Below the pieces are notes generated by a model that was not told the DNA's origin, did no database searches, and saw only the letters and a program-made list of their open reading frames with translations. Source: Burkholderiales bacterium (GTDB lineage Bacteria; Pseudomonadota; Gammaproteobacteria; Burkholderiales; Usitatibacteraceae). From it: 34,436 nt of DNA. The stretch covers positions 1-34,436 of the forward strand of contig JAYWCO010000451.1 of the NCBI GenBank assembly GCA_043780475.1. The letters run 5' to 3'. Shown in pieces: positions 12,477-33,219 of this stretch. Position numbers and translations under genes: made by a program. Position 1 is the first letter of the stretch; each line of letters begins with the position of its first letter.

Positions 12477-14654
12477 TCAGGGAGCGGGCTCAATCGCCGC
12501 CAGCACGATGGCGGGGGTTAATAATTCCGGCAAGATTATCGGCTCTCCCTGAGCTGGGTAAAACACATAGAGCGGCACACCGTTACGGCCAAATTCGGCG
12601 AGCGTTGCGGTGATCACCGGGTCTTTCACGGTCCAATCGGCCTTCATCCGCACCACCGATAATGCCTGAAAGCGATTGATCACCTCGGCCTGATTCAGCG
12701 CGGCGCGTTTATTGACCTGGCAGGTGATACACCAAGTAGCGGTGAAATCAACGAACACCGGTTTTCCCTGCGCACGCAGCTCGGTAATTTTGGCCGGTGA
12801 GAACGACACCCAACCGTCTTCAAGCTTGGCTTGCGGGAGGTTCTGCGTTTCCCCTGAGGGCCAGGCCAACGCGATGCCGACGGCCACGCCGATCAAGCCC
12901 AATGCGATGGCGAGCATCGGTTTTTTAACCTGCCAGCGCCCATACGCCCATGCCGCAAACGCGATCGTGGTCAGCGCCGCGAGTAATTTGGTCACGCCAT
13001 CATTGCCTGTCTGTGCGCCCAATACCCAGGCCAGCCAGACGACGGTGGCATACAGCGGGAACGCCATGAATTGTTTGAACGTCTCCATCCACGCACCCGG
13101 TCTGGGCAAAAACCTTAACCACGCAGGCACGAACGAGAGCAATAGCACCGGCAACGCAAGCCCGACCGCAATCGCCAAAAACACCAGCAATGCAATCGGC
13201 GCGCTTTGGCTTAGCGTGAATCCCACGGATGCACCCAGACCTGGCGCCATGCATGGTGTGGCCACCAGCGTAGCCAGCACGCCGGATGCGAATGCACCGG
13301 CGAGCGGATTTTTTTGCGCCTTCATTTCGGCCTGACCTGCCGCCGATTGCAATGAGGTGCCGATTTCAAACGCCCCTGATAGATTCAACGCCATGACAAA
13401 AAATATGATCGCGAGCAGCACGATGAAGCCTGGCTCTTGCAACTGGAACCCCCAGCCAATCGATTGGCCCGCCGCACGCAGCGTCAACATCAGCGCTGCC
13501 AGCACCACAAACGACACCACCACCCCGGCAAAAAATGCGAGCCCCTGGCGGCGCAGGATACGGGCATCGCCGTGGGCGTTTTCCACAAAGCCCATCACCT
13601 TGATACCCAGCACTGGAAACACGCAAGGCATCAGATTAAGCACCAAGCCGCCCAGCAACGCGGCTCCAATTGCTGCAAACAAACCCAAGGCGGGGAGCGC
13701 ACCTTGAGCCATTTTTGGCTTGATAGCCACTCCAGTGCTAGGGTTTGAATTTACCGCATAACTAACCGGCGCCGCAATCGCCACGGCTTTACCCACATGC
13801 GCGCGACCCCAATTATTCGATGTCACCAATACGCCATCGAGTATTTTAAGATCGCTCACCACAGGATCCGCCAATGGCATCGTCAGCCTGAAACTTTCCC
13901 GCCCACCTTCGGTAAGCCGCGTCAGCACTTGCTTGCCGGCGTTGGCGATAACATCGTCGCGGATCGGATAAAACGCGATGTCCTCGATATCCTTGAACTC
14001 AACGGTTTCGCCTGACGGCGGCATCAGATCAATTTGCAGACCCTCTGCGGAGAGCCGGGCGCTGCTATTCCAGCCTGATAATGGCGTGGGCAATGCTGCA
14101 TGTGCAGCCGTAAATGCGCTAGCCCAGCGCGCGTCCGGTCGGTTAGTCGCCCCAGCAGCAGCGACCGGCAAGGTGATCGAAACTTGGCCGTCTTCGGGAA
14201 TACATACATCCGCACACACCAGCCATTCGGCCTTGGCACTCAGCGTAATTTTCTCGCCAGCCTTCAACGTATTAGGCGTTTGAATCGTGACCAGATGCAG
14301 CACCTCGCCCTCGTAGCCAAAATTCATCAGCGGGCCCAGCGGTAATTTTTTTGGGTACGGCCAATCGATGGCACTTGCGGTAAAACCGCCAGGCAAATTC
14401 CATTTGAGTTTGGTCGGCAAACCCGAATCTCCCGGGTTTCGCCAGTAGGTGTGCCAGTGCTCGATGATATTCAAGCGCAGCGCCACCTCGATACTCTGCC
14501 CCGGAACAATGGCCGTATGACGCGCAATTAGCTCGGCCTCAACATGCGGCGTTTTAACGACTGCAGCACCTGCCATGGCGTCGGCCTGTGTGCCGATGAA
14601 AATAAATATTGTGGCCAGCAAGATTGAGAAAAAATGCGTTATGAGTTTAGGCAT
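12477..14654 (-). CDS. dsbD: DsbD-family protein-disulfide reductase (N-terminal DsbD-alpha/ScsB-like domain, CcdA-type membrane core, C-terminal thioredoxin)
   Basis: Signal peptide, CADVCIP motif, membrane core with MPCVFPVL and ATPCMAP, C-terminal thioredoxin WCITCQ. Start at ATG 14654 (MPKLITHFF...). Confidence 0.85.
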   Translation of the reverse strand: MPKLITHFFSILLATIFIFIGTQADAMAGAAVVKTPHVEAELIARHTAIVPGQSIEVALRLNIIEHWHTYWRNPGDSGLPTKLKWNLPGGFTASAIDWPYPKKLPLGPLMNFGYEGEVLHLVTIQTPNTLKAGEKITLSAKAEWLVCADVCIPEDGQVSITLPVAAAGATNRPDARWASAFTAAHAALPTPLSGWNSSARLSAEGLQIDLMPPSGETVEFKDIEDIAFYPIRDDVIANAGKQVLTRLTEGGRESFRLTMPLADPVVSDLKILDGVLVTSNNWGRAHVGKAVAIAAPVSYAVNSNPSTGVAIKPKMAQGALPALGLFAAIGAALLGGLVLNLMPCVFPVLGIKVMGFVENAHGDARILRRQGLAFFAGVVVSFVVLAALMLTLRAAGQSIGWGFQLQEPGFIVLLAIIFFVMALNLSGAFEIGTSLQSAAGQAEMKAQKNPLAGAFASGVLATLVATPCMAPGLGASVGFTLSQSAPIALLVFLAIAVGLALPVLLLSFVPAWLRFLPRPGAWMETFKQFMAFPLYATVVWLAWVLGAQTGNDGVTKLLAALTTIAFAAWAYGRWQVKKPMLAIALGLIGVAVGIALAWPSGETQNLPQAKLEDGWVSFSPAKITELRAQGKPVFVDFTATWCITCQVNKRAALNQAEVINRFQALSVVRMKADWTVKDPVITATLAEFGRNGVPLYVFYPAQGEPIILPELLTPAIVLAAIEPAP

Positions 14655-14841
14655 GGAACATTCAATAGTTGCGTAAAAAATGCCGCACATGACCTTCGCT
14701 ACGGCTGGCGGAGAATAAAAAATGCGGGCGTGCGCATTCCGAAGATGATTTTAAATACGAAAGGGCTTGCCGTACAGATGTGAACGGAATGCAGATATTG
14801 ACCCATGGACAACCGGTGAGAGAGTATGCGCTCAAGAAGGG

Positions 14842-14915
14842 TGGTGCCCACAGTCTGGATTGAACAGACGACCTACCGCTTACAAAGCGGTTGAAAGGCG
14901 ATTTTCTATACGCAC
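14842..14915 (-). pseudogene. Degenerate tRNA-Thr(UGU): 3' 50 nt intact, 5' part non-canonical
   Basis: The reverse strand from 14891 to 14842 reads ACCGC-TTTGTAA-GCGGT (anticodon UGU), AGGTC, GTCTG-TTCAATC-CAGAC, TGTGGGC-A-CCA. The 5' part GTGCGTA-TA-GAAA-ATCGCC-TTTC pairs poorly with the acceptor 3' strand (one mismatch, three G-U) and lacks the D-loop GG. Confidence 0.6.
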
Positions 14916-15162
14916 GATTCCAAAATTTATCGAGAAAAATTGGTTTTAATTCCAATAGTTACCTACGGAATTTCAAAATTTATTGTAACTCAATGTGTTG
15001 CGCGTTTTGCCCATTTAATGGCCAGCAAATGGCCACGCATGAAAATTGAAGGTGCCGAGTTAAAGCGAAAAACCGGCAAAATTTGGAAACTGGTAAGACT
15101 CAAATGCTCAATAATTTCACCGCGTATTTTCCCGTCATGCCATAGCTTGTTGGCGCCAATGC

Positions 15163-15294
15163 GCGTTTGACCTGAGCTACCGATTTTGACTGACCCACCG
15201 CAAATTGGCGAAACCCCTGAATAGGCAACGGTTCGCGAGGGCTTCTGCTGGGTCAATAAAATGTCGGCAAGTGGGTCAATTTGGTTTCGGCGGC
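15163..15294 (+). repeat. Left copy of a long imperfect inverted repeat (partner at 25257-25370)
   Basis: Hand alignment of 15201-15294 to the reverse complement of 25257-25349 gives roughly 85 percent identity. This includes a perfect 23-mer, ccctgaataggcaacggttcgcg (15215-15237 vs 25313-25335). It contains three copies of a ~19-nt motif GTGGGTCAAT-N5-6-TCGG at 15180-15198 (inverted), 15248-15267 and 15271-15290. Confidence 0.8.
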
Positions 15295-16334
15295 AACAGC
15301 ACTAGCCATAAATCCAGTACCGGAAAGCCTTAGGCAGATTCGAGGATCCGGAATCGCGAGTTAAAAAAGCCATGAAAGTTGATCAAGTACCAGCCGCCAA
15401 TCCAACCGACTTGGGGTAACTCGCTTGTCAACTATTTGCTTTACATCTACGAAAGAGAAACAATTTTGATGTCAAAAATTGCAACACACACTAACTATTG
15501 ACTAGAAATTTGGTGTTCATGGCCGGACGGTGAATTGCGTTGGGCAAGCAATGGTAATCGTATTTGCATGCGCCTTGGCCAGCGTGTCCACCCAGTCAAA
15601 GGGTATATTGCCGACGTGCGTTCGTTTCCTCGATGGGGCAAAGGTTTAGTCTTGGCCAACTTTGGTTGTCGCGTTTCTAGAAAATCAAGCCGAAACCAAA
15701 GTGTGAGCGGCGATTCTGCAAAAGAACGCAGTTACTGGCTTCGGGTATAGAGCGCTGAGATATCCGAGCCCAGTCTATTTTGTAGCGATGGATTGGTCGG
15801 TGCGTTGAATTGCAGTGAAATTTGAGCCCAGTTGAGCAGTAAATTTTATAAAAAATAGCCTCACATCAAACCACAATTCCATTTTATTTTACGCTGCGAG
15901 ACGGAGTGGCGAGTTGGGTTAGCATTCTCAGCTGTCAACGCTTCTTCCTAGCCAAATTGAGTGCACTACGCATGCTGATACCTCTGATAAGCTGGTCGAT
16001 GCTGGACTGGCTGGAGGGAACAACCCGACCGCAGAAGCCTGGAAACGGAAGCCATCCCCACTCAGAAACACGGTCACCGATTCGGAAAATTGCGCTGATC
16101 TGAGCACTAATCCCGCCTCAACCCGGACCGCCGTTAGCTCAAATCCACTGTCCGGCGCGGCCTTCTCAAACCGAGTTTTTTGGAGCGGTGTCGCTAACTG
16201 TCCTCCATCCTAGGCAGGCTTGTTGCCAGTCGCCGCCGAAAAGCCAGGTCGTTTTCGTCGTTAGCTTTGCGCTCCAGCAGTAGCACGTCTTTCTGTTGCA
16301 TCGATTCTGGCGGTGCCGATGTCGTCGTCACAAT

Positions 16335-16796
16335 TTACTGAAACGGAACGCCGCCACTATTGGACAGCTGGCTTTCTGCCTCTCCCGCAAGCAGCAAATA
16401 TTCACTGTAAAGCCGGCCGCTCATATCGGCTTCGAGCGGGCAGTCGTGTACTACAAACCCCGGATGATGACTGGACTTTGATGTCGCGGCATCCAACAAG
16501 CAAACCATATCGTCTATAAGCATCTCAAGGACCTGGTAAGCCTCACCCTCCCGAGCAAGCTGAAAGGGTCTCATTTCACTATCCGATATGAAGCGGCCAT
16601 GCTCGCCTTCGCCTAGTATCCTGGCAGCCACTAACGCCGTCGGCGCTTTGATTTGTTCCCGTCGCTCGTCACGCTCTATTCCGCGCTTTACAACGGTGAC
16701 TTTGTGTTCATTTCGGTCGCGAGTCAATAACTTTTTCCTCGCTTGGGCTCGTTGCAGGGGATGCACAAGCGCATCGGTTAGCCAAAGCGCCCGCAC
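16335..16796 (-). CDS. Hypothetical protein (153 aa from a GTG start); possibly a 5'-damaged gene
   Basis: ORF only, with no recognisable motif. The frame stays open and protein-like for 21 more codons upstream (VIYIVGNGADDQPQDSLKSAK) without any ATG/GTG/TTG. Confidence 0.35.
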   Translation of the reverse strand: MRALWLTDALVHPLQRAQARKKLLTRDRNEHKVTVVKRGIERDERREQIKAPTALVAARILGEGEHGRFISDSEMRPFQLAREGEAYQVLEMLIDDMVCLLDAATSKSSHHPGFVVHDCPLEADMSGRLYSEYLLLAGEAESQLSNSGGVPFQ

Positions 16797-16897
16797 TTTA
16801 GCCGATTTTAGCGAATCTTGCGGCTGATCGTCTGCACCATTACCAACGATATAAATGACCTACGCAACAGCGCAGCTTCCGCTCTGCATACCCCAAT

Positions 16898-18100
16898 TCA
16901 AATTAATCCAATGTCTTTTGGCTGGGCACCGACGAAGATTTTTGTTAGCTGCGTATTGCTTAATCCGTACATACGCTGAAACAAGCCACCGAATACCGCG
17001 CGATATTCGTTTAGCACCGGATAATCACGATTCTGGAACAAAGATTTCTGTTCGACGGCGACATTTTCGCCAGCAATTTGCCCACCCTTAATCGATCCGC
17101 CCAGCACCCAATAGACGCTGCCATGCCCATGATCCGTACCACGGTTACCGTTCTCACGAAAAGTGCGGCCGAATTCGCTGACCACCACGACCACCGTGTT
17201 GCGCCATTCGTTACCCATTTCGTTGGCAAATGCGGCAAGTCCGCGACCAAGCTCATCAAAACGGCCAGCCAGATACCCAGTAGCGTTACCTTGGGCAACG
17301 TGGGTATCCCAACCGCCGACATCGACAAATCCAATGTTGTGCTTGTCCTTCATCAGCTTGGCGATGCGGCGCGCTTCCAGCTCAAAACCTTTTGCTGAAA
17401 TCGCATTGCGGCTCGCCCCGTCCATTTCAGCCGTCAATTCACGCATCACTTCATCACGAATAGTAAAACCCTCGCCAACGCGCTGCTCAAGCGGCGTTCC
17501 CCGGTACATCGCCGCAATCATTGCCGTTTGCCTGGCATCTAGCGCGGGTTTTGAAACAGAGCGCAACGCGGTGTTGGGGATTTGCATGCTGCCCTGTAGC
17601 ACGATGGGCAATTGATCCGTAAACGCAATGGCACCTTGGCTATTCAAAGTAACAGCAAGCCGATTCAGAAAGCCCGACTGATAATTGCGCCCCTGATTGA
17701 GTGGTTGGCCCAGTTCAATGCTGTCTTGCGTTTCAAAATGACTGCGCGACAGGTCGTCAATTCCGGCAAATGGGATAAAGGCGGCCTGTCCGGCAGTAAA
17801 CAGCGGATAAATCGATTCGCGCAGTGTGGGATGCAGCCCCCAATCTGTACTGAGCGGCAGTGCCGTATTGGCCACAGTGCCGGGTGCAGGAATGGCGATA
17901 TTCGGGCGTGCCTCATAGTAAAACTTGCTCGATATCGGTACCAGCAAGCTGGCTGCATCATAGCCACCTCGCATGAATACCACCAGCAAGCGGTTGCTGG
18001 TGGTCGGCGCGGCGAACAATCGCCCCACGCGCAGCGTAGAAGTGGCCGCATAAGCCGTCGCGGCTACAGCCGCGCATTTCAATAATTGACGACGATTCAT
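16898..18100 (-). CDS. DUF1501 family protein (sulfatase/phosphatase-like fold) with Tat signal (400 aa)
   Basis: Twin-arginine leader MNRRQLLKCAAVAATAYA. DUF1501-type motifs LVVFMRGGYDAASLL and DVGGWDTHVAQG. GGAGA RBS 8 nt upstream. Confidence 0.85.
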   Translation of the reverse strand: MNRRQLLKCAAVAATAYAATSTLRVGRLFAAPTTSNRLLVVFMRGGYDAASLLVPISSKFYYEARPNIAIPAPGTVANTALPLSTDWGLHPTLRESIYPLFTAGQAAFIPFAGIDDLSRSHFETQDSIELGQPLNQGRNYQSGFLNRLAVTLNSQGAIAFTDQLPIVLQGSMQIPNTALRSVSKPALDARQTAMIAAMYRGTPLEQRVGEGFTIRDEVMRELTAEMDGASRNAISAKGFELEARRIAKLMKDKHNIGFVDVGGWDTHVAQGNATGYLAGRFDELGRGLAAFANEMGNEWRNTVVVVVSEFGRTFRENGNRGTDHGHGSVYWVLGGSIKGGQIAGENVAVEQKSLFQNRDYPVLNEYRAVFGGLFQRMYGLSNTQLTKIFVGAQPKDIGLI

Positions 18101-18145
18101 CTCAACATCTCCGGGGACAATGACAGGTATTCATGCAGCGGTTAC

Positions 18146-19747
18146 TTACCGATACATCATTTCAGGCGCGGACAATAGCACCATATTCCATTCTTGCGGT
18201 GTGGCAGATTGTTCTAATGCCTTGCGCGTAGCCTGATTGAGGCTGCGTTCAATTTGATTGTAGTAAAGCGCATTGGCAAGTTGTGGGAAGGCTGGCTTTT
18301 CAACAGGCTGGGGCCCTTCCGTCTTAAATAGTCCAGCACTGCCTGAACCAATCGCCTTGGCAATTTCAAATCGGGTGTTCATCTGTCCCGGGCTGGCCCA
18401 TGCCGACTCAATCATCGAATAACCGTCTGGCGTTTGACGGCCAAACAGCGGTTGCCCCATGCGGTTTAGCCAATTTTGCATCGGGCCTGCGTTGAGAATT
18501 GGTTTGTCGTCGTAAGCCAACCGCACCGCCGACACCACATACTGCATCGGCGTTTTGAATTTATGGCCAAGCGAGGCGTTGAATTCATTGCTCGCAAACA
18601 GCGTCCTAAGCGTGGCTGAAATATCGCCATCAGTCTGCAAAAAAGTGACCGTCATCCGGTCAACGAGCGCAGCGGGCGGTTGGTCAGCGACAAAGTAAAT
18701 GGCGAGCTTGCTGCAAACGTAGCGCGCGGTTGACGGATGGCGCGCTAGCAAGCCAATAGCCTCATTGACTTCAGCAAGCCCACGCCCTTTTAATGTGCGT
18801 CCTAGCAGCAATTTGTCGCCATAGTCATGGCGATTCGGGTTGAATTCAAAAATGCCGCTACGCACATATTGGGCTGCAATTTCTTTGCGCACATTGGGTT
18901 TTGTAGTGCCCAGATTGACCCCTACTCCAGTCAGCACGCGTGCCAGCTCCTGCACGTCCTTCTGGCTGTAGCCGCCGCCAACGCCGAGCGTGTGCAGTTC
19001 CATCAGCTCACGAGCGTAATTTTCGTTGATACGGTTGACCGCATTTTGCTCATTGTCCAGATAACGGATCATTGCCGGATGAAACACTGTCGCGGTCAGC
19101 AGCTCGCGAAATTTGCCCAGGACATGCGGGCGAATAGCGGATTCTTCAAAATCGCCAATCATTGCGCGAATATTGTGCTTGCCCTGATGGATGCTGAAAT
19201 GATTCATCCAGAACCAGACCATTTGCTCCTGTAACTGGTTGGGCGAGTACACCGCGCGCATCAGTGCGCGCGTTGACGCTTCGCGGGCAACGCGGTTCAT
19301 CTCATTCTGATAAGCCTGCTGCGCCACTTTTTTGGCGTCGTCATCCTTGATGATGTCGGCGTCTTTACGACGTTGCTCCAGTTCCGCAACCAGCGACGGC
19401 ATGTCTTGTTTGACGATAGTCATATCGGTAATTTGCTGGCTGATCGCCGCTGGCAATGCCCGCTTTTGCGTCAATTGCGCATCGAGATAACGCGACACGC
19501 CAATCTGGTCAACTTGCTGCATCGTACTTGCATTCACACCCCACGTAATGCGATTAATGACGTCTAGTGGCTTGCCTGCCACGACAGCCAAGGCGCTCTG
19601 CATGGGCGGCTTGCTGGGCGCGTCGACAGTGGCGCAACCCGATAACGCTAACATTAGCAACAGTGCTCCACGCGGTAACGCACCTGACTTGCTCGACAGT
19701 TGCTCGAATCCAAGCAGTCGATTAAAACGGTGTAAAAAAATCAGCAT
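18146..19747 (-). CDS. DUF1800 family protein, probable lipoprotein (533 aa)
   Basis: Start at ATG 19747 with a GGAGA RBS. Lipobox LLMLALSG|C. DUF1800-type motif ELHTLGVGGGYSQKDVQELARVLTGVG. Paired with DUF1501 as is usual for these families. Confidence 0.8.
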   Translation of the reverse strand: MLIFLHRFNRLLGFEQLSSKSGALPRGALLLMLALSGCATVDAPSKPPMQSALAVVAGKPLDVINRITWGVNASTMQQVDQIGVSRYLDAQLTQKRALPAAISQQITDMTIVKQDMPSLVAELEQRRKDADIIKDDDAKKVAQQAYQNEMNRVAREASTRALMRAVYSPNQLQEQMVWFWMNHFSIHQGKHNIRAMIGDFEESAIRPHVLGKFRELLTATVFHPAMIRYLDNEQNAVNRINENYARELMELHTLGVGGGYSQKDVQELARVLTGVGVNLGTTKPNVRKEIAAQYVRSGIFEFNPNRHDYGDKLLLGRTLKGRGLAEVNEAIGLLARHPSTARYVCSKLAIYFVADQPPAALVDRMTVTFLQTDGDISATLRTLFASNEFNASLGHKFKTPMQYVVSAVRLAYDDKPILNAGPMQNWLNRMGQPLFGRQTPDGYSMIESAWASPGQMNTRFEIAKAIGSGSAGLFKTEGPQPVEKPAFPQLANALYYNQIERSLNQATRKALEQSATPQEWNMVLLSAPEMMYR

Positions 19748-19987
19748 AAATTCTCCGCATGAATCAGCATAAATCTCAAAATCAATGACTTGCCAGCAGC
19801 GCGCAATTGCCAAGAACATAGTTAACGCTAAAAACACCAGTGAAGTGCACACGAGTTGCAACAACTTATGACAACACTGGCAACGATGATGAACTTCCGT
19901 CGTTTGGTGTTCATCGTCTGCACGCTCACAAGGCGACCTTGCCCCTGTTTAACGTATCCCTTAACCAGGCCGGTTATGCGGTCTGTG

Positions 19988-20359
19988 TTATCTGATCCGC
20001 ATGCCTTGCTGCTTCAAACTGCATCGGACGACGTAGTCCAGCGCCCCGGTCAGCAGTAAAACAACGAGCAGGGTAGGGCACAGCATTTGCAGCGACTGGC
20101 AAATCGCGATCACTTTTCGGCGGTCGCCGCGATCGGCGAGTAAGCCATCTGCGAGCGTCAACAGCCAAATGGGCGCTCCCAAAGCAAATGCGTCTAGACC
20201 AATCAGAAACGACGAAGCGCCGAGACTCAATATCAGCCACGGCGGCGCCACTTGCTGTGCCCACGTGCTAATGTTGGCAAGCAGACTGGCGAACCAGAAA
20301 GTACCAAAGCGGCGGGTAAATATGAGGCTAGTCGATTCGCGAAAGGCAATCTTCTTCAT
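19988..20359 (-). pseudogene. 5' stump of an MFS transporter gene (EntS/MFS_3-like)
   Basis: MKKIAFRESTSLIFTRRFGTFWFASLLANISTWAQQVAPPWLILSLGASSFLIGLDAF...LADRGDRRKV matches the first 2-3 helices of MFS_3-type exporters. The frame terminates after about 123 codons, against the 400+ expected. Confidence 0.6.
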
Positions 20360-20634
20360 GACGATGCAAGCTAACACAGCACGAGCCTGTTGCTCTGTCG
20401 TTTACGCAACCGAGCCTAGTTTTTCTAAACGAAATCGCCAGATCGACCAACTCACAGCGTCAATCCCAAGCCTTCAACCGCGACAAAACTTTGTTGCGAC
20501 GCTCTGGGTTGAACCTAAACGTACCCGCTAATTTGCCAAATGGAGACAACGCGCCCACCGTTGTTTTTAATTCCTTGGGCAATCCTGAGCCATGCAAACT
20601 ATAAACTGCGGGTAGACTCACTTAGGGACTAATT

Positions 20635-20714
20635 TTAAGTATTCGTTTGTCAGTGCGGATTAACTGATCGCGGATTAAGTATTCGTTTGTCAGTGCGGAT
20701 TAACTGATCGCGGA
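20635..20714 (+). repeat. Perfect 40-bp tandem duplication (2 units)
   Basis: ttaagtattcgtttgtcagtgcggattaactgatcgcgga occurs at 20635-20674 and again at 20675-20714. Each unit carries two gcggatt sub-motifs. Confidence 0.95.
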
Positions 20715-21047
20715 TTTTTAGCGGCGGCGGAAGTGAAATTGATGGACTTTGGCCCTCCAAATTACGTGCAGTTTGAAGTGAAAGTAAATCATCGCGATGA
20801 AAGTTCGTTCCTTGCATTGATAGCGTGATGAGATGCGTGCGGAGATGGCTGCGTCTGCCGATTTGGCAACCCCTACCGATGAGAGTAGTGAAGCGTTGCA
20901 GCTCAACACTGAGAATTCAATTCGCTAGCTGGCACTAGACAACCATTGCTTTATTGGATGGTTTTAAATTCCGATCAAATTTTTACAGCAGGCAAACGAC
21001 GATAATCATAAAAAATTTGATGATCGTGTTTGTATACTGTCGTCAGT

Positions 21048-21893
21048 TCACTTTACCACTGGCGCTTTGTGTTTCTTTTTTGTGGCCGGTGGACTCTTTT
21101 GCTCGGCCTCTTCCTTCGCTTCGGACGCTTTTTGCTTATCAATGCGGTGTTGTTCAACTTCCTTCGTTAATTCTTCTTTACGAGCTTCGATCTTCGCTTC
21201 GTTCATGGTCCGGCGATAGGCCTCCGGGGCGCGATCTACTTTCTTTGGTGGCTTTTTGGGGTCGTGTGACACATAGGCAAATTGCCCGGCATTGATGATG
21301 ACTTCGCCAGCGGGATTTTTGAGCGACGTACTGCCACTGTTTACTTTTTCATAGGTGCCCGGTTCGCCGCCAACAGCTTTTTCGCCTGGTCCCGGAATCG
21401 GGATGTGCAACGGTTCATGGTCAGTGCCCCGAATCCCAATCGTCGCCGAAGGTGTTCGGATCGCATAATGATTCGCGTTGTTCCGGCCAATCCAGCCGGT
21501 AATCGAGCGCATCGCGCCATAGGCCATTGACATGATCACGCCGTCGTCTTTATCGCCTTTAGCCCGATAAAACTCGACTAACACCTTCGAATTCGGGCGA
21601 AATGCCATGTAGCCGTGGTCGTCGGTACGAACATGCAATTCACCGTCACGCCCGGTCATGATGGTTTCGCCCTCAATGATCTTATCGTTAACGTGTACCA
21701 AGCGTGTTTGGCCTTTTGTGTCGATAACCGATACCTTGCCTTCCACCAATTCCACCACGCCAAATTCATTCTCAGCCCATGCCACCGGCGCGGCCACCAG
21801 GACACAACTTAAAATGAGTAAGCTGAATGTGCCGGTAAACCGGGCCACCACCGTCAAAAAAAGATTCTTTAAAAACATCGAGCGCAGACGCAT
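21048..21893 (-). CDS. Secreted FecR-domain protein with Lys/Glu-rich C-terminal tail (281 aa)
   Basis: Signal peptide ...LVAAPVAWA|EN. FecR-type beta-rich core (GKVSVIDTKGQTRLVHVNDKIIEGETIMTGRDGELHVRTDDHGYMAFRPNSKVLV). Charged coiled tail. AGGAG RBS 8 nt upstream. Confidence 0.75.
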   Translation of the reverse strand: MRLRSMFLKNLFLTVVARFTGTFSLLILSCVLVAAPVAWAENEFGVVELVEGKVSVIDTKGQTRLVHVNDKIIEGETIMTGRDGELHVRTDDHGYMAFRPNSKVLVEFYRAKGDKDDGVIMSMAYGAMRSITGWIGRNNANHYAIRTPSATIGIRGTDHEPLHIPIPGPGEKAVGGEPGTYEKVNSGSTSLKNPAGEVIINAGQFAYVSHDPKKPPKKVDRAPEAYRRTMNEAKIEARKEELTKEVEQHRIDKQKASEAKEEAEQKSPPATKKKHKAPVVK

Positions 21894-21933
21894 GATGGTG
21901 ACTCCTATAAAAACGACAGAAAATGAATACCGT

Positions 21934-22734
21934 TTAAAAATCGGATGAAATGGTCATACCAAAACCGTTATCGGGACTTTGCGCCGATCGCCCCGAAATG
22001 GCATAAATATCAACCTTAACGCCTTTGAACGGCTTGAAATTAATATAGTAAGTAACATCGCGCGATCGTGGTAAACCGTCCGCAATCGATCCACCCTCAC
22101 TGAAGGTTACGCCAACGGACGTCGTTTTACTAATACGATAACTGCCATCGAACGAGCCGTAAAAAGCATTTTTGAATCTTTGACCATCGGGCTTTCCGAC
22201 AAACGTATAGCCAACGGTCAATGCGCCATTAAAAGAGCCGAGTGCGTGCGACAAGACAGACTGAAATGAAAGATCATCCTTGCCAGACCCTAGGCCTTTG
22301 GCACTGGACGCAGTACTAAATTTCGCAATGCCGCCGAAATCAAGATCAACCCCATTGTCTTCTTCGGTCAGGAGATATCGGGTAACGCCGGCGGTGACAT
22401 CGCCGAGCCCGGATGCCTTCTGATCGGGGCCGACGATGACGGTGGGTCGCCGCCCCGGGATCGAGATAAGCCGTCCGGGCCCTTGTTGGTGAACATACGG
22501 AACAACGACATCGAACGAATAGTCGTCCACGTCATAGGTCACGGTCGTGGAGGTGATAGAGACGACGGAATATTGGCTTTGACCGTATTTGCCTTTTGAC
22601 CGGTCGTAGCCAATTTTCGCATTCAAGGTCGGCTCGTCCTTGGTTGTGGCCTCCTCCTCAATGGCAAAAGCGTTAGGAATTCCTATTGTCACCGCGATAA
22701 ACAAGCGCGCGCAAAATTTAAAAGTAGCGTTCAT
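21934..22734 (-). CDS. Outer-membrane beta-barrel protein (MetA-pathway/transporter-like family, tentative; 266 aa)
   Basis: Signal peptide ...PNAFA|IE. Alternating beta-strand pattern, SGLGDV motif, C-terminal ...MTISSDF ending in Phe. Confidence 0.65.
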   Translation of the reverse strand: MNATFKFCARLFIAVTIGIPNAFAIEEEATTKDEPTLNAKIGYDRSKGKYGQSQYSVVSITSTTVTYDVDDYSFDVVVPYVHQQGPGRLISIPGRRPTVIVGPDQKASGLGDVTAGVTRYLLTEEDNGVDLDFGGIAKFSTASSAKGLGSGKDDLSFQSVLSHALGSFNGALTVGYTFVGKPDGQRFKNAFYGSFDGSYRISKTTSVGVTFSEGGSIADGLPRSRDVTYYINFKPFKGVKVDIYAISGRSAQSPDNGFGMTISSDF

Positions 22735-22807
22735 TCAACCGTTCACATTCGTTAATACGTTAGTCGGAAAACAACAATACGGAGCTTTGTTTGGCGTCAA
22801 TTACCGC

Positions 22808-23026
22808 CTACACACGTCTCCGCAATCGGTGAGTCACGGTTCGCCGGTGATCGCGACGGCTTTTGATCGCGTCGTGCTGCGCTTTGGTGGCGTCGGGCTT
22901 TGTGACGCTGTCCTTATTTTTAACCTCTTTTGCGGCAGGGATTGGGGGCGGCGTTTCCTGAGCTTGCGTGAGTGTGTTAACACTAACGAGCAAGCCTGTC
23001 AAAATCAACAGCAGGTATTTTTTCAT
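22808..23026 (-). CDS. Small secreted Pro/Lys-rich basic peptide (72 aa)
   Basis: GGAGA RBS 8 nt before ATG 23026. Signal peptide MKKYLLLILTGLLVSVNTLTQA|QETPPPIPAAKEVKNKD..., with an Arg-rich tail. Confidence 0.5.
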   Translation of the reverse strand: MKKYLLLILTGLLVSVNTLTQAQETPPPIPAAKEVKNKDSVTKPDATKAQHDAIKSRRDHRRTVTHRLRRRV

Positions 23027-23155
23027 GATGTAAGTCTCCATTTGTTACAATATTTTAGATCGGAGGTGATGGTGTCGTAATAATATGTTGTTGTTGAGTT
23101 ATGAACAAACTTTTACAAATTTACTCATTCTCACGATTCAAAAAATAGAGGATTT

Positions 23156-23365
23156 ATGAAAATTCTAAATATTTTTGTTGCAACCCTGTTGACGAGCTTT
23201 GCGATGCAAGGTTGGGCTCAGACGCCAAAGCCGCCCGAGCCACCGGGCAAAACAGTGGCTAAAACAGACGCCAAAGAAGAGAAAAAGGACAAAGAAGAAG
23301 AAAAAGACAAGGACGAGAAAAAAACGAAAGCCCATAAAAAGCATACGCATAAACACAAGGAATAA
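23156..23365 (+). CDS. Small secreted Lys/Glu/His-rich peptide (69 aa), paralogous in layout to 22808-23026
   Basis: AGAGGA RBS. Signal peptide MKILNIFVATLLTSFAMQGWA|QTPKPPEPPGK..., then a KEEKKDKEEEKDKDEKK tract and the tail KAHKKHTHKHKE. Confidence 0.55.
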   Translation: MKILNIFVATLLTSFAMQGWAQTPKPPEPPGKTVAKTDAKEEKKDKEEEKDKDEKKTKAHKKHTHKHKE

Positions 23366-23468
23366 CGTGTCGCCTGCTTGCAACAGGGGAAAGCATCTGT
23401 CGTTGACATCCATCGAGCCCCTGTTAGAGTATGTAATCATTCATTAATTCTCATTGCAAGGCGTTAGC

Positions 23469-25127
23469 ATGACGACTGGTCTTGCCAAGGAAAAGCGAGA
23501 GCGCCTGATGTATCGCGTTGTTAAGCGATTTGACAGGCGCTTTTTTCTTTACCTCGCTGTCTTCGCGTCATTGTTGGTTGCCGTCGATGTCAGTACGACC
23601 AAATTGGTCGGAGGAATGGAACAGGCAACTTTTGATTGGTTGATGAAGCATCGCATTCACTATGCGGCGCCCGATCGTGACATTGTCATTGTCGATATCG
23701 ATGATGCAAGCATCAAAGAGTTGTCACTGCGATACGGTCGGTGGCCTTGGCCGCGCGAGGTGATTGGTGGACTGCTTGAAAAACTGGCCGTAGCCAAGCC
23801 TCGTGCAATTGTTTTTGATATTGCTTTTAGTGAACCGGATAAATTAAACCCGGTTTCCGATCAGCACTTTCTGGAGCAATTACGAAAATCAGGGAATGTT
23901 TTTTTCCCGATGGTGCTGTTAGATGAGACCGGCGTTAGCAGCATCCCGCTGCGATCCTTGGCCAGTGCCAAGCGTTTGTCGGCAACCGCCTTGGACAGCG
24001 AAAAAACTTCGGTTTTATTGCCGTTCTTCCATGATGAACTTAAGCCAACCCAAATTGGCACGAACAACATTACGCCCGATAAAGATGGCATCATCCGCCG
24101 CTTTGCGCCACAGCGCGAGACGAACGGTTGGGGAATACCGTCAATTGCGCTCCAAGTCGCGCGATCGTTGAACTTTCCGCCCTTGCAGAACCCAAATTTT
24201 CTGGTCAATTGGCGGGGCCCACCGTACTCCTATTCCTCGGCGTCGTTTAGCCATATTTTGTCATCACCCATCGAGGGACCCGACTCGCATCTCAAAGAAG
24301 ATTTCGGGGGTAAAATTGTCATTATTGGCTCGACCGCGGCGAGTTTGTTCGACATCAAAGCTTCACCGATGGCGCGCATCCATCCGGGTGTCGAGATGCT
24401 CGCGACCGTGGTTGATAATATTAAAAATAATGATCCGCTTCATGAGCTCCCATCGTCCGTCTACGCATTTGCCGCGATAGCATTCATCTTCGTACTGGCC
24501 TTCACATTGTATTCAGAGCGCAGTGCCATGGTGACGGATTGGCTGTTTATTTTGTTGCAATTCGTGGCCATCGGTGTCTGCTACCTGTTGCTCAATCTGG
24601 GCAACACCTATCTTGATATGACCGTGCCTATTGCGTTTTCAGTCGGCTTCTTCACGGTGGCACGTATCTATGGCTACTACCTTTCGGAATACCGGGCAAT
24701 GCAAATTTCACCCGATATCAAGCTTCAATACGGGAGTCGTTATCGGTTGTCAGTAATGGCAATTCGATTTGCCTCCGGGAATACCGTCTCTCGAAAAAAG
24801 ATCGAGCAATTGCTGCGCAAAACCCTTGCGTCGTCGGAGCTCAAAGCAAATGTTGAGATGCATCCGTTTGGATCGTCGCGATTGCTCGAGAACCTTGTCC
24901 CTAATCTGTTTTTAATTTCCTGGATTACGATCGAGGATGTCACAACCGACGCAAAAATTGAAATGGAAACGTATCGAATCACTGGTTTTTTAAGAAATAC
25001 TTATGACGAAAAACATTTCACAACGAGCACCGAATCGGGAACATTGATTGTCGACGAACAGGCAAACGTGATTCAAGGACAAGATATCGCGATGGCGGCG
25101 ATAAATTCGATCACCTCGCCACGATAA
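23469..25127 (+). CDS. CHASE2-domain membrane sensor with an uncharacterised ~147-aa cytoplasmic C-terminal domain (552 aa)
   Basis: N-terminal TM, then CHASE2 motifs IVIVDIDDASIKELSLRYGRWPWPR and KIVIIGSTAASLFDIKASP, then three TM helices. The tail has no kinase, GGDEF/EAL, cyclase metal-binding Asp or protease motif visible. Confidence 0.8.
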   Translation: MTTGLAKEKRERLMYRVVKRFDRRFFLYLAVFASLLVAVDVSTTKLVGGMEQATFDWLMKHRIHYAAPDRDIVIVDIDDASIKELSLRYGRWPWPREVIGGLLEKLAVAKPRAIVFDIAFSEPDKLNPVSDQHFLEQLRKSGNVFFPMVLLDETGVSSIPLRSLASAKRLSATALDSEKTSVLLPFFHDELKPTQIGTNNITPDKDGIIRRFAPQRETNGWGIPSIALQVARSLNFPPLQNPNFLVNWRGPPYSYSSASFSHILSSPIEGPDSHLKEDFGGKIVIIGSTAASLFDIKASPMARIHPGVEMLATVVDNIKNNDPLHELPSSVYAFAAIAFIFVLAFTLYSERSAMVTDWLFILLQFVAIGVCYLLLNLGNTYLDMTVPIAFSVGFFTVARIYGYYLSEYRAMQISPDIKLQYGSRYRLSVMAIRFASGNTVSRKKIEQLLRKTLASSELKANVEMHPFGSSRLLENLVPNLFLISWITIEDVTTDAKIEMETYRITGFLRNTYDEKHFTTSTESGTLIVDEQANVIQGQDIAMAAINSITSPR

Positions 25128-25256
25128 AAACTGTTCGATGGCGAAGTGCCCGCATGTAGACTAATCTGTCGGCCAGCAGACTGGACTGCAGAGATCACGC
25201 CCCCGGCTTGCTGGCCGCTTGGGATATGTTACGACTGTCCCTTACGAACAATTGTG

Positions 25257-25370
25257 GCCGCCGACATCAAATTGACCCACCTGCCGATTTTGATTGCCCC
25301 ACTCCAAGCCCCCGCGAACCGTTGCCTATTCAGGGATTACGCCAATTTGGGGTAGGTTGGTCAAACAGCG
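25257..25370 (-). repeat. Right copy of the long imperfect inverted repeat (partner at 15163-15294)
   Basis: See the left copy. Motif copies lie at 25261-25280, 25284-25302 and 25351-25370 (the last inverted relative to the first two). Confidence 0.8.
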
Positions 25371-25452
25371 TGCAACACTTTCCAGTTTAGGGGTGGAAAC
25401 AGCGTCCAATAGTTTCCACCCCTAAACTGGAAAGTGTTGCACGCTGTTTGAC
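25360..25452. repeat. Perfect palindrome: 41-bp arms separated by 11 nt
   Basis: 25360-25400 (gtcaaacagcgtgcaacactttccagtttaggggtggaaac) is the exact reverse complement of 25412-25452. The spacer is agcgtccaata. Each arm also holds a small internal hairpin, TTTCCA-N9-TGGAAA. Confidence 0.95.
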
Positions 25453-25496
25453 ATCAAGGTGCGGTACCACCAGAATATTTTGAGCGCCCCTATTTT

Positions 25497-26013
25497 TTGG
25501 CGCCGACCGCGAAAGGCGAAAAAGTGTACGCGCTATTGCGCGAGACCTTGCGCAAAGAAAAGAAAATCGGCATCGCCTATGTGGTGATCGCGACCAAGCA
25601 GCATCTGGCTGCGTTGAAGCGCGTGTTCGATATCGACATCGAGCGCTGCCCGCACTGCGGCGGGCAACTGAAGCTCATCGCGGCCATTGAGGATGCGGCC
25701 GCCATCGCCCGCATCCTCACGCATCTGGGGCTGGCCGCGCAGCCGCCACCGCGCGCGCCGGCGAGACGGGTGGATCTGTTTCAGGCGGCGTGAGACGTAA
25801 AACTGGACTGGACTTTGACAGGGCTGGGGGAGGTGTGCGGACGGCGCTCGGGCAAACGCTCAGATGGAGTGGAATTCAGGCGCGCTGAGTGCGGAAATTG
25901 TCTGCGAGGTTAACTGAGCCATGGGCTTTTAGAGGTTGCGCGCGCGTTTGACCGCTCAACGATCATCGGATACATTCAGGATGCTTGAAAAGGGGCGTTT
26001 GAAATTCCTATAC
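25497..26013 (+). mobile_element. 5'-truncated IS91/ISCR-family element: transposase C-terminal stump (25497-25793) plus oriIS-like end
   Basis: ...LKRVFDIDIERCPHCGGQLKLIAAIEDAAAIARILTHLGLAAQPPPRAPARRVDLFQAA is the characteristic C-terminus of IS91-family rolling-circle transposases. GGCGTTTGAAATTCCTATAC at 25994-26013, about 200 bp after the stop, resembles the IS91/ISCR oriIS consensus as I recall it. Most of the transposase is missing. Confidence 0.75.
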
Positions 26014-26096
26014 GTCGTTCCGACTCAGCTATGCCACCAGGGAAAGCGAGCCAGCCGCCTCGCCCGCGCGCCGTCAAGGGTGGCTGCGAGAAACGC

Positions 26097-27395
26097 TCAG
26101 GGACCGCTGACCTGGATGGCCACCAGCTTGCCTGCGCCTTGTAAGAACAAGGGCCCGCTGTCGAATACACCCGCGGCCGCGCCGCACGAGACGTTGTACG
26201 TTGTCTGCACAGCAGGATTTACGATCGCATCGAGCGTGGCAAGGACCGTCGAACTGAGAGTGGTCGTATTGAATCCAGCGCCGGTTACCGTCGCGGATGG
26301 CACCGTGAAGTGTACAAGGTCGATCTGCGTGGCCGGAATGGACGAGGTATCGAGCAGATTGCATTGCGCCGAGTAGAGCGTGGGAATGGGCACCAAAGTC
26401 CCGTCAGCGAGCGTGATCGAGGACGGCGGCGTACTCGTGGCGACCTCCGTTCGGGTGTGCAGCGCGTAGCGGCCGGGCGGAAGAGTGATGCTGCTGCCCG
26501 TGGCGCTGAATGCCGCGCCGCCGCCGCCGCCCGTCCCCGCGGGGCCCTGCGCGCCAGTCGCGCCAGCAGGGCCGGCGACTCCTTGAGCTCCGTTCATGCC
26601 ATTTGTTCCGGAAACGCCGGGCGTTCCTGCGGGGCCCACAGCGCCCGTTTGTCCGGCCGGTCCCGCGGGGCCCGTTGCACCGGTCAGTCCGGCCGATCCC
26701 GCGGGGCCTGTCGCGCCTGTCAGTCCGGCAATTCCTGCGGGGCCTGTCGCGCCCGTCAGACCTGCGATTCCTGCGGGGCCCACCGCGCCCGTCAGTCCGG
26801 CGATTCCTGCGGAGCCTGTCGCGCCCTTCAGTCCGGCCGTCCCTGCGGGGCCTGTCGCGCCCTTCAGTCCGGCAGGTCCAACCGCGCCGGCGATTCCCTG
26901 CGGTCCCGGCGGGCCCGCCGATCCCGCAGGGCCCTGGGGTCCGGCGAGGTCGCCGATCTTGACGAAGAACGGTTCCGAACTAGCGGTCCCGTTGGCGACG
27001 ACGAGCTTGTGCGTACCCTCAACGCCTTCGTCGAGCGATGCAATGATTGACTCGTCCGTGCCCCCGCACGGCGATCCGGAGGAGGCGGCCAGCACCTGCT
27101 GGGTAATCAAAATCTCGCCGCCGAGAGCGACGCGCGGAGTCGACCCGAAACCATGGCCGCAAATCGTCATGACGCGATAGGTGGTGTCGGGGCAAACCCG
27201 CAAGACGCAAATCCCCGTGGCGCAATCCTTGGCCGGGTCAAAGTCGTGATTGCTCGCGGCCCTGAGGTTGGAGCAGGTCTGCGCCTGCGCAGCACCCGGG
27301 AGGCCAAAGGCAAAGAGGCCACAGACCGCAGTGACCGCGAGCGGAAGGAAGCGAAAACGGCGCTGCAGCACATTGAACTGGTTGATTTCACCCAT
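26097..27395 (-). CDS. Secreted collagen-like triple-helix repeat protein (432 aa)
   Basis: AGGAGG RBS 6 nt before ATG 27395 and a signal peptide ...GLPGAAQA|QT. A Cys-containing Ig/IPT-like N-domain is followed by about 55 uninterrupted Gly-X-Y triplets ([16 protein letters not shown]...[10 protein letters not shown]). The ~135-aa beta-rich C-terminal domain could be a C1q/BclA-like trimerisation domain (inference). Confidence 0.85.
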
Positions 27396-27493
27396 GGTGG
27401 ACCTCCTGTAAAAATGAGCCTGGAAGGTAGCGTATCGAGCCCTCGCTGTCAACTGGTCGAGCGGTCGTTCAGGTCACTGCACTCAACCATTGA

Positions 27494-27973
27494 GAAAGAG
27501 ATTATTTTCAGCGCGGAAACTCAACGCCCAGCCGTGCGGTGGTGCAAAGCGCGGGCCAAGGGTTTCGTTTAAAAGCGAAAGTTATACAAGACAAGTTTGC
27601 TGAATTCGGCCCAGCCACTCACTTATTGCTTCGATATACGCGGGCGTTGATCACACAAATGGCGCAGACAGCAGTCTGCAACCGCCATCATTCCCTTGAC
27701 AAGCAACTGTGTCGTTGGCTATTACTGAGTCTTGATCGCCTGTCGGGTAATGAGTTAGTGATGACCCAGGAATTGATTGCCAACATGCTCGGCGTTCGCC
27801 GAGAAGGCGTCACGGAAGCGGCCGCCAAGTTGCAGAAGGCTGGCTTAATTAGCTATACACGTGGGCGCATAGAGGTGCTGAATCGCGACGGGCTGGAGAA
27901 GCGGTCATGTGAGTGTTATGCAGTGGTCAAAGCAGAATACGACCGCTTGCTTCCGAATCAGATAGCCGTCTGA
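27494..27973 (+). pseudogene. Crp/Fnr-family regulator lacking most of its cNMP-binding domain
   Basis: The C-terminal HTH part is intact (LCRWLLLSLDRLSGNELVMTQELIANMLGVRREGVTEAAAKLQKAGLISYTRGRIEVL). Homology (..GNSTPSRAVVQSAGQGFRLKAKV..) runs up to an in-frame TGA at 27491. Only a GTG at 27539 is available as a start. Confidence 0.65.
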
Positions 27974-28146
27974 CTTATTGCCGGTCATCCATCACCGTGA
28001 CCATTTTTTTCAAAACTTGCACAATTAAGCAGAAGCTAAAATGAAATTTACAGAATCTTTCTGGGATATACAGTTTTTCTGTGTAGTCCTGCCTGTATGA
28101 GTAACATACGCCAGATGCTGAAATCTCATCAACCTATTGCTGCTAC

Positions 28147-28386
28147 GTGAGAGATAAGGGCGGTGCGTTTATGACCGCTAACACGATGCTGGATGCCAGA
28201 ACAGTTGAGTATCCAAAACGCGAAACGCTTGCTTCATATTGTGGTTTGCCTATTTTGGACAGCGAAGGCAGAATTCTTGGAACATTGTGTCACTACGATG
28301 TGATGCCGCGTGATCCCGAACAAATTGATTTATCACTAATGTTGTCGGTTGCCGTTACGCTGTTGAAAAGCCACTTCGTAGATTGA
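28147..28386 (+). pseudogene. C-terminal half of a small GAF-domain protein (probable stump)
   Basis: ...ASYCGLPILDSEGRILGTLCHYDVMPRDPEQIDLSLM resembles the end of stand-alone GAF proteins of about 160 aa. Upstream there are only short broken ORFs. Confidence 0.45.
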
Positions 28387-28454
28387 ATGAAGTACGCCGA
28401 AATTTTGGCAAAACTCTGATGCATGGTTGACTCCCGATGAGATTCACGCTCTCA

Positions 28455-31400: not shown

Positions 31401-31562
31401 CGCATAGGCACGCACTACGCCTGCCACTGAGCACTCATCGGTGATGGCAACCGCGTGATAACCCAGCTTTGATGCTTGCTTGACCATTTCTTCCGGATGC
31501 GAGGCACCACGCAAAAACGTGTAGTTGGTCAGGCAATGCAGCTCGGCGTAGTGAGGAAGCAT
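28455..31562 (-). CDS. dnaE2: Error-prone DNA polymerase III alpha-like subunit DnaE2 (ImuC), 1035 aa
   Basis: MLPHYAELHCLTNYTFLRGASHPEEMV PHP-domain N-terminus and full Pol III alpha architecture. Located downstream of imuA-imuB. Confidence 0.95.
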   Translation of the reverse strand: MLPHYAELHCLTNYTFLRGASHPEEMVKQASKLGYHAVAITDECSVAGVVRAYAQARDLNIKLIIGTEITLLDGLKLVLLATNLNGYGNMCELITLARSRAEKGAYQLSRPDLPDSIDDCLLIWCPREDSVLGADYVEQATWLAQHFAGRCWIAVELLRGADDKWWLQRLREIARVYGLKLVAAGDVHMHIRPRQALQNVLTAIRVGKPVAECRAALYPNGERYLRAIGRLSNIYPPDLLIETLAIVQRCVFCLSQIRYEYPEEVVPMGESPTSYLRRLTYDGVKMRYPAGLPEKVRGIIEYELALIQEMQYEAYFLTVYDIVKFARDQGIMCQGRGSAANSAVCYCLGITEVDPGRMQVLFERFISRERNEPPDIDVDFEHERREEVIQYLFQKYGRDRAAITATVSTYHAKGAMRDVGKALGFSMDQTDKLSAAMTLRYESGIPDDRLSEAGFDADNAKVKLLMALADDIRSFPRHQGQHAGGFVLDNRKLTRLVPVEPARMEGRTVIQWDKYDLDVLGLMKVDVLALGVMTAIRKSIDLVNGYRGTNLRVQDMPPEDPKVYDMLCVADTIGLFQVESRAQMARLPTLRPRTFYDIVIQVAIVRPGPIKGGMVHPYLRRRAGTEAVTYPSDDIKYILERTLGVTIFQEQVMAIAIKAAGFTPGEADQLRRAMAAWKRKDGLEPFRDKLVEGMLARGYAAGYAEQIFEMVKGFGDYGFPESHAASFAMLAYVTAWLKCYEPAAFAAGLLNSQPMGFYAPAQIVYDVQRHGVEVYPVDVLMSDYDSTLVADTKGQAAIRLGLKSIAGLSAEGGMRMVEARRANPCLSLDELRERAQLNAKDMNALAEADAFRSLAGHRRDAMWATLGTERLPPLLRGSQCAQRAEQDTRQPSLLAPTEGEDVLADYNRVGLTLRSHPLKLLRPKLKAMRLKSSDDIQYARQGQLMRTSGVVLNRQRPDTASGAVFVTLEDEYGLINITVWRNIAERFRVALTQSRLLTVYGTIEREATTVYVMAGMLVDHSKLLGALATSSRDFR

Positions 31563-31619
31563 GGGTTAATAATCGGTGTGGTGAATGCGAGCGTGGGGAT
31601 GAATAGGTGTAATCTGCGG

Positions 31620-33203: not shown

Positions 33204-33219
33204 GACCAGTTCAACAAAA

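Follow-up and report, generated by a model that had tools for sequence, protein, structure and literature searches.

Facing inverted repeats on a Burkholderiales contig are probably two copies of a 151-bp miniature element with IS21-type ends

Repeats and Genes at the Locus

The stretch of DNA analysed here, referred to as the window, is contig JAYWCO010000451.1 (34,436 nt; assembly GCA_043780475.1) of an uncultured bacterium within the order Burkholderiales (family Usitatibacteraceae). Two repeats in the window, denoted MITE-L and MITE-R, face each other across 10 kb of DNA (Table 1). A first-pass annotation of the sequence had described them as inverted repeats of ~85% identity with a perfect 23-mer and had offered two readings: the termini of a ~10-kb cargo element, or members of a dispersed family akin to MITEs (miniature inverted-repeat transposable elements) or repetitive extragenic palindromes (REPs). 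The genes that it had placed between the repeats (DUF1501, DUF1800, MFS stump, FecR-like, and CHASE2) were all recovered with Pfam. Its statement that no transposase lies between them was likewise upheld, as tblastn detected neither istA/istB nor remnants of IS3-family insertion sequences (ISs) in the window. This includes the DNA without open reading frames (ORFs) beside MITE-L, where a six-frame reading added no information. As argued below, we consider it very probable that both repeats are copies of a MITE derived from the IS21 family and not the ends of a 10-kb element.

A repeat finder identified two inverted pairs in the window, 15185-15261/25289-25365 (77 nt, 83% identity) and 15264-15298/25253-25287 (35 nt, 89%), which a 1-nt indel separates within a single alignment. 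Both copies share the perfect 23-mer CCCTGAATAGGCAACGGTTCGCG. The 10-mer GTGGGTCAAT, allowing at most one mismatch, occurs nine times in the window compared to 1.9 expected, and none of 100 shuffled sequences reached nine. An nhmmer profile of the repeat family, built from independent copies outside the window, matched positions 15149-15299 on the plus strand over its full length (model positions 2-152) and positions 25251-25374 on the minus strand, with no other significant match in the window. A weak, 28-nt profile match at 11821-11848 was considered as a third copy and rejected; it is attributed to chance because it lies in secretin coding sequence that is conserved in an orthologue (L038). 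The inverted repeats are therefore real and far beyond chance.

When copies of the family were aligned on their core, they shared borders at TGTTGG and CAACA, 151 nt apart, outside of which the flanks were unrelated. Placing the borders where the flanks of 12 copies diverge yields a unit of 151 nt (15148-15298 in the window) with sharp ends, 5'-TGTTGG...CAACA-3'. Full copies start with TGTTGG (TTTTGG in one copy) and all end with CAACA. The left repeat thus begins ~50 nt further left than position 15201, where the first-pass annotation had started it, and the weak outward similarity that it had followed to ~15122 falls outside the unit.

Table 1. Features of the window in and around the two repeat copies.
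Feature	Position	Strand	Basis
MITE-L, full-length 151-nt putative IS21-derived MITE, ends TGTTGG...CAACA	15148-15298	+	nhmmer, E 2.5e-48; flank divergence in 12 copies
T1, outer terminal repeat of left TIR, TGTTGGCGCCAATGCGCGTTTGACCTG	15148-15174	-	aligns with terminal repeats of ISPst3-like IS21 ends
I1, inner repeat of left TIR, TACCGATTTTGACTGACCCACC	15178-15199	-	CCGA-N7-TGACCCA blocks as in ISPst3 L2/R2
Family-specific core (~48 nt) with perfect 23-mer	15200-15247	+	copy alignments
I2, inner repeat of right TIR, CTGGGTCAATAAAATGTCGGCA	15248-15269	+	motif search
T2, outer terminal repeat of right TIR, GTGGGTCAATTTGGTTTCGGCGGCAACA, terminal CA	15271-15298	+	compare ISPst3 right end GTGGGTCAATTTTCCATCAGCGCCAACA
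Intervening DNA (contents include an ORF-free stretch, a 153-aa ORF and a 266-aa ORF)	15299-25252	.	Pfam
DUF1501	16898-18100		Pfam
DUF1800	18146-19864		Pfam
MFS stump	19988-20377		Pfam
FecR-like	21048-21893		Pfam
CHASE2	23469-25127		Pfam
MITE-R, degenerate 125-nt copy, apparently of another subfamily	25253-25377	-	nhmmer, E 8e-38, model positions 29-153
MITE-R T2	25253-25281	-	site mapping
MITE-R I2	25282-25302	-	site mapping
MITE-R core	25303-25350	-	site mapping
MITE-R fused T1/I1, one degenerate site	25351-25377	-	26-nt deletion between two TTTGAC repeats
Perfect 41-bp palindrome, 11-nt loop, arms 25360-25400 and 25412-25452	25360-25452	.	repeat finder
98-codon ORF, Ku beta-barrel fragment fused in frame to presumed IS91-type transposase C-terminus	25497-25793	+	Pfam Ku, residues 3-41; translation
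TIR, terminal inverted repeat.

Anatomy of the Repeat Unit

The full unit comprises four ~22-nt bipartite sites (YGCCGA-N7-YTGACCCA), two per end and pointing inward, around the ~48-nt core. Each ~52-bp end consists of two direct copies of the bipartite site (T1 and I1, 15148-15199; I2 and T2, 15248-15298). Read from the tip inward, the outer repeats conform to (TGTTG)SCGCYGA-N7-YTGACCCA and the inner repeats to TGCCGA-N7-YTGACCCA. Three of these sites had been noticed before, with I1 described as the 'inverted' motif alongside I2 and T2; the count of three was one short, since the diverged T1 had been overlooked. The proposal that the sub-repeats are several binding sites for a transposase would fit the layout of IS21-type ends.

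No site is a palindrome by itself, and within a pair of sites the variable spacers differ in length and do not complement each other. This indicates that conservation acts on half-sites, as would suit a protein that contacts DNA through two domains, rather than on a hairpin. Consistent with this, the predicted fold of MITE-L is only marginally better than that of shuffled sequences (z = -2.3), and for MITE-R there is no improvement over them.

MITE-L is 97% identical to a copy on another contig (L006:8457-8612) and 87-88% identical to the type that is abundant in metagenomes. With all four sites present, it should still be a substrate for transposition. MITE-R is 83% identical to MITE-L and 86% identical to both the L018 copy and the abundant metagenome type, whose diagnostic bases it carries; the two copies in the window thus appear to be members of different subfamilies. 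In MITE-R, the 26-nt deletion has merged T1 with I1, which deprives the outer end of the two repeats that the IS21 transposase IstA needs. That end should be dead, and MITE-R is probably the older member.

Relationship to IS21-Family Ends

The terminal inverted repeats (TIRs) of IS21 elements are ~55 bp long and contain two direct repeats (L1/L2 and R1/R2), each with two conserved GC-rich blocks separated by ~10 variable bases (PMC10122671). Biochemistry and cryo-EM indicate that integration by IstA requires both repeats plus the terminal CA, and like ends, of either kind, can be used in pairs by IstA in vitro (PMC10122671). On a Pseudomonas aeruginosa plasmid, a terminal site precedes a second one that leads into istA, and at the other end istB lies just inside the terminal site. 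Six intact ISPst3-like elements in four insertion contexts, with istA/istB annotated as IS21-like in RefSeq, carry TGTTGCCGCTGACCGAAAACTGACCCAG-(12 nt)-CTGCCGACTGAAAACTGACCCAGG at the left and CTGGGTCAAATTTCAATCGGCAGGGTGGGTCAATTTTCCATCAGCGCCAACA at the right. The right end of the MITE, CTGGGTCAATAGAATTCCGGCAGGTGGGTCAATTTGGTGTCGGCGGCAACA, has the blocks, spacing, and terminus of the ISPst3-like right end.

The unit shares with the ISPst3-like elements the terminal 5'-TGTTG...CAACA-3', the ~52-bp TIRs made of two direct repeats, and identical blocks (TGCCGA ... TGACCCAG) around a variable ~7-nt spacer. It also shares the tight 2-3-nt gap between the two repeats of the ISPst3 right end. Unlike those elements, it lacks istA/istB, is 151 nt rather than ~2605 nt long, and is only ~70% identical to ISPst3 in its TIRs. 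The hosts also differ, as the ISPst3-like elements reside on Pseudomonas plasmids whereas the MITE resides in the chromosome of an uncultured Burkholderiales. The unit therefore combines 5'-TG...CA-3' termini and TIRs of two direct repeats with likeness to an element that encodes istA/istB, and appears to consist of two IS21-family TIRs joined by a ~48-nt spacer, forming a 151-bp non-autonomous MITE.

Multi-site ends of the Tn7, Mu, or Tn402 type were considered on account of the TGT...ACA termini and repeated sites. Like the MITE, Mu, Tn7, and Tn402/Tn5053 terminate in TG...CA and carry several transposase sites of ~20 bp at each end, but this assignment was rejected because the matching ends lead into istA/istB and not into tnsB/tniA/MuA.

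Unannotated elements on Polaromonas plasmids (pPNAP01 and pE10SP1; L030 and L031) resemble the unit in length (~151 nt) and in having the four sites, and their first 50 nt are 86-90% identical. Their cores, however, are unrelated to that of the unit, and the pPNAP01 copy is split by an IS3-family element. Shared sites with unrelated cores would fit a case in which the protein-binding ends, and not the sequence as a whole, are under selection.

The only IS21 element on a MITE-bearing contig (L008:780-3490; istA 1811-3346, istB 978-1814) is a different one, with terminal repeats of the GGTAC type. It is inserted in orfA of an IS3-family element that itself abuts an IS21-type terminal site, giving three nested layers. 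Related IS21-type ends were also observed on three viral contigs, ~100 nt from the contig end and without a full element. A perfect DnaA-box consensus, TTATCCACA, is conserved just interior to the right-end repeats of ISPst3-like and ISPpn1-like IS21 elements, ~40-90 nt within the element tips (L042-L044, L051, L033, L048, L026, L027). The box is also present at related ends in two viral contigs and is absent from the MITE.

Dispersal of the Repeat Family

When 185,579 representative genomes were scanned with a core 21-mer, the single match was a solo copy on a 2.6-kb contig of a Burkholderiales metagenome-assembled genome. Screening of metagenome contigs with a 19-mer from the core yielded 21 loci, one of which was a chance match, and 20 contigs were retained. 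The copies are mostly solo and occupy at least 12 distinct flanking contexts. At seven of the 20 contigs the copy lies at the extreme contig end, as expected of a multi-copy repeat that is longer than the assembler k-mer; the family thus breaks short-read assemblies of this group of Burkholderiales. Small size, lack of coding capacity, and occurrence in many unrelated contexts are the hallmarks of a MITE. Of the two readings in the first-pass annotation, the dispersed MITE/REP-like family is the one favoured by these data, and can be specified as an IS21-family-derived MITE. The other, the termini of a ~10-kb cargo element, finds no support, as each copy is a complete miniature element with two ends of its own. 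The annotation itself had stated that many solo copies would speak against a 10-kb element, and such copies were found at at least 12 unrelated sites.

Other bacterial MITEs include MITEPsy1 (from the IS5-family element ISPsy2), the Tn3-derived TIMEs and MITEPsy2, and the Correia elements. Like these, the unit is short, non-coding, multi-copy, and intergenic, comprises two IS ends, breaks assemblies, and is presumably mobilised in trans (PMC3189936). Unlike these, which have a single site per end and clear target-site duplications (4 nt in MITEPsy1; PMC3189936), it has two sites per end and no duplication. A limited literature search combining IS21 and MITE returned no paper on an IS21-derived MITE, which is weak evidence.

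By analogy with IS21, an IstA tetramer would bind the two repeats at each end of the MITE and synapse both ends. IstA would then cleave at the terminal CA, and insertion would proceed into a target delivered by the AAA+ helper IstB. Both proteins would have to be supplied in trans, presumably from genes elsewhere in the genome, and any present activity would depend on them. The two copies in the window probably inserted independently of each other into an uncultured Burkholderiales chromosome, at a variable stretch undergoing decay, in which case their facing orientation would be a coincidence with one chance in two. A natural 151-bp element of two complete IS21 TIRs would approximate the minimal IstA/IstB substrate of recent structural work. 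Recognition of the family also provides it with a name and avoids false annotation of a 10-kb mobile island.

Missing Target-Site Duplications and Shared Single Flanks

Several observations weigh against an IS21-derived MITE. None of 12 full MITE copies is flanked by a 2-9 bp target-site duplication, and comparison of the flanks across the 12 copies revealed no matches of at least 4 bp and no inversion-type relations. Two full copies in finished Polaromonas plasmids likewise lack a duplication, as do full ISPst3-like elements in all four of their contexts. Among autonomous IS21 elements, none was found whose ends match closely (more than ~75% identity); those annotated that come nearest are the ISPst3-like elements of Pseudomonas. 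In addition, most copies are on short-read metagenome contigs, where the flanks of a 151-nt repeat may be mis-joined, and the mobility of the family is deduced from its distribution. In structure the unit qualifies as a MITE on every count but one, and the missing duplication is the feature that does not fit.

Duplications of IS21-family elements are normally 4-8 bp long (5 bp for IS5376; PMC10122671). Because full ISPst3-like elements also lack one, their absence does not separate the MITE from its presumed parents. Missing duplications at 'non-genuine' insertions are common for other ISs (PMC3189936).

Three contig pairs agree in only one of the two MITE flanks (L001/L003, L004/L005, and L011/window 26079). 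In the last pair, a 98%-identical segment directly abuts the MITE end in L011. The contig pairs and the lack of duplications could possibly be explained by recombination between copies, or by an intramolecular route of IS21 that proceeds through a junction or cointegrate-like intermediate.

The segment shared with L011 (window 26079-26762, L011:12862-13544; 98% identical) comprises the 3' part of a collagen-repeat gene and downstream DNA. In dsbD, the MITE-rich organism (L015) reaches only 73% identity. This points to a recently exchanged segment or to the presence of several related organisms in the samples.

IS3-Family Insertions at IS21-Type Ends

On the Polaromonas naphthalenivorans plasmid pPNAP01 (L030), an IS3-family element is enclosed between the MITE ends, and in L008 the same orfA start lies 70 nt from a terminal site. 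An IS3-family parent of the MITE was therefore considered and rejected: related IS3 copies align up to the inner repeat GGGGGTGCGG and end there, with 3-bp duplications of their own in the copies whose junctions were read. This indicates that the IS3 element is an insertion into the MITE, between T2 and I2, and not its parent.

ISBmu11-like IS3 elements (orfA MYSYEDRIRAVKLY...) lie directly beside the TTGACCCA block of the IS21/MITE terminal repeat in eight of 12 inspected copies. The loci concerned are at L030:8001-9763, L037:280-1935, L008:3474-3626, L031:16517-16570, and L006:8570-8585, and in L033, L034, L035, and L048. Where readable, their duplications are 3 bp (ACC, AGT, and CAG). The MITE in L006 has an extra CCCCC(AG) at the position of the ISBmu11-like insertions, possibly a footprint. 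This pattern looks like a target preference for the end of another element. A precedent exists in IS4321/IS5075, which show a target preference for the ends of Tn21.

One reading that unites these observations, although we regard it as doubtful, is that an intramolecular route of IS21 type, through a 'reactive junction' or a cointegrate-like form, is the main way in which the MITE and its ISPst3-like relatives move. The same reading has an ISBmu11-like subgroup of IS3 prefer to land in the IS21/MITE terminal repeat. Movement through a reactive junction would leave no duplication at each copy, and each copy would keep one old flank and gain one new flank. If true, such copies would be active makers of rearrangement breakpoints, which would account for the junk-filled DNA at 25378-26078, the contig pairs with one common flank, and the variable region beside dsbD. 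The ISBmu11-like elements would be parasites of a parasite. The missing duplications and the targeted IS3 insertions in IS21 ends merit specialist attention, although neither would alter any general principle.

Alternative Explanations for the Facing Copies

The pair could instead mark a MITE-mediated rearrangement, through recombination between inverted copies or an intramolecular IS21-type event, such that the intervening 10 kb was inverted or relocated without being cargo. The three contig pairs with one common flank and the lack of per-copy duplications are in keeping with such an event, as is the loss of synteny with relatives that carry dsbD close to MITE-L. In three of these relatives (L038, L015, and L025) synteny is lost at the identical base, 14893, 254 nt before MITE-L. 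We nevertheless rate such a rearrangement as very improbable. At 83% identity the copies are too different to have come from a single recent event of duplication, flanks related as reverse complements, which an inversion would predict, are absent, and no relative with the opposite orientation was found.

Also very improbable is that the copies are the working ends of a composite, MITE-bracketed transposon of ~10 kb with the DUF1800/DUF1501 and FecR/CHASE2 genes as cargo. What invites this explanation is that facing copies bracket 10 kb without a transposase inside, and that IstA can use two like ends in vitro (PMC10122671). Pairs of MITEs that mobilise cargo are also known in other families, as mentioned in PMC3189936. 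A composite would require two competent outer ends, however, and the outer TIR of MITE-R is a single degenerate repeat where IstA needs two. The two copies seem to stem from different subfamilies, MITE-L being far closer to the L006 copy than to MITE-R, and no duplication surrounds the pair, the flanks of which (...CATAGCT and CTTTCCAG...) are unrelated.

Comparison to relatives further argues against a composite, because they share the 10 kb in part only. In L058, a relative at 80% nucleotide identity, the match is confined to the FecR-like/CHASE2 module (20997-25127), and the DNA on either side of it is different. L058 diverges right after the CHASE2 stop codon, and no MITE is present in the 160 nt that remain to the contig end. 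In L006, homologues of DUF1501 and DUF1800 (69% nucleotide identity) have the MITE on the opposite side of the gene pair. The GC content of the interval is not distinct from that of its flanks, and other members of the family are mostly solo. The dsbD relatives (L023, L025, L038, L039, and L015), which lose synteny at 14893 and not at the MITE, offered no exact empty site. We judge the interval to be a variable, decaying region of ordinary chromosomal DNA that gathers mobile-element debris, and not a discrete cargo.

There is next to no likelihood that the unit is a structured element used by the host (a RAYT-mobilised REP/REPIN-like hairpin, a non-coding RNA, or a regulatory site), even though it is palindromic overall with a long-hairpin fold (z = -6.3 for the L018 copy) and its copies are intergenic, some of them beside terminator-like hairpins, because the half-sites rather than their pairing are conserved, MITE-L itself folds only weakly better than shuffled sequences and MITE-R no better, the ends match IS21 TIRs that lead into istA/istB, neither a RAYT-like ORF nor a GTAG-type REP motif was seen, and Rfam gave no match over 15050-15400 even at E <= 1.

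A Palindrome and Transposase Debris Beside MITE-R

The first-pass annotation had started a 'third degenerate copy' at 25412. This is the second arm of the perfect 41-bp palindrome. One arm holds the terminal 18 nt of MITE-R (25360-25377), and the other holds them again in inverted orientation (25435-25452); only these 18 nt of MITE-R are repeated. The palindrome has a predicted fold of -79.3 kcal/mol (z = -17), and four Logan contigs end within it. Two independent assemblies, L052 and L053, contain window positions 25251-25460 without a single difference, and the stretch is therefore genuine sequence and not an artefact of the source contig. L052 is 99.4% identical to the window over 13468-28415 and has a full-length unit with an equal profile score at the position of the left copy. 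The locus is present in the samples ENA ERZ27280951, JGI 3300015208, SRR22198355, SRR24581286, ERR4837129, and DRR331388. Fold-back repair or template switching is a possible source of the palindrome.

The 'IS91 stump' of the first-pass annotation was half right. Its ORF begins with a fragment of Ku, and only the remainder, which we take to be of IS91 type based on the motif CPHCGG...RVDLFQAA (CPHCGGQLKLIAAIED...RVDLFQAA), corresponds to such a transposase.

Other Features of the Window

Even in L025, with a dsbD of 73% identity, the 65 nt that precede the loss of synteny with the dsbD relatives (14829-14893) retain 94% conservation; they may represent a conserved regulatory element upstream of dsbD. 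Contig L053 (JGI), which is 100% identical to window 15859-25916, starts with the 3' end of an IS256-like transposase and an IS terminus (L053:1-117). This constitutes an IS256-like insertion polymorphism at 15858/15859, within the stretch lacking ORFs next to MITE-L. Over the shared 15 kb, three gaps separate L052 from the window.

No tRNA was detected in the window, nor any Rfam family at gathering score. Between the MFS stump and the FecR-like gene, non-coding DNA at 20635-20714 comprises a perfect tandem duplication of a 40-nt unit. To the right of the repeats, 26097-27452 encodes a secreted-looking protein with a long collagen-type Gly-X-Y repeat (36-nt period, 69% GC), and 28455-34116 encodes, on the minus strand, a mutagenesis cassette of an imuA-like gene, imuB (IMS family), and dnaE2.

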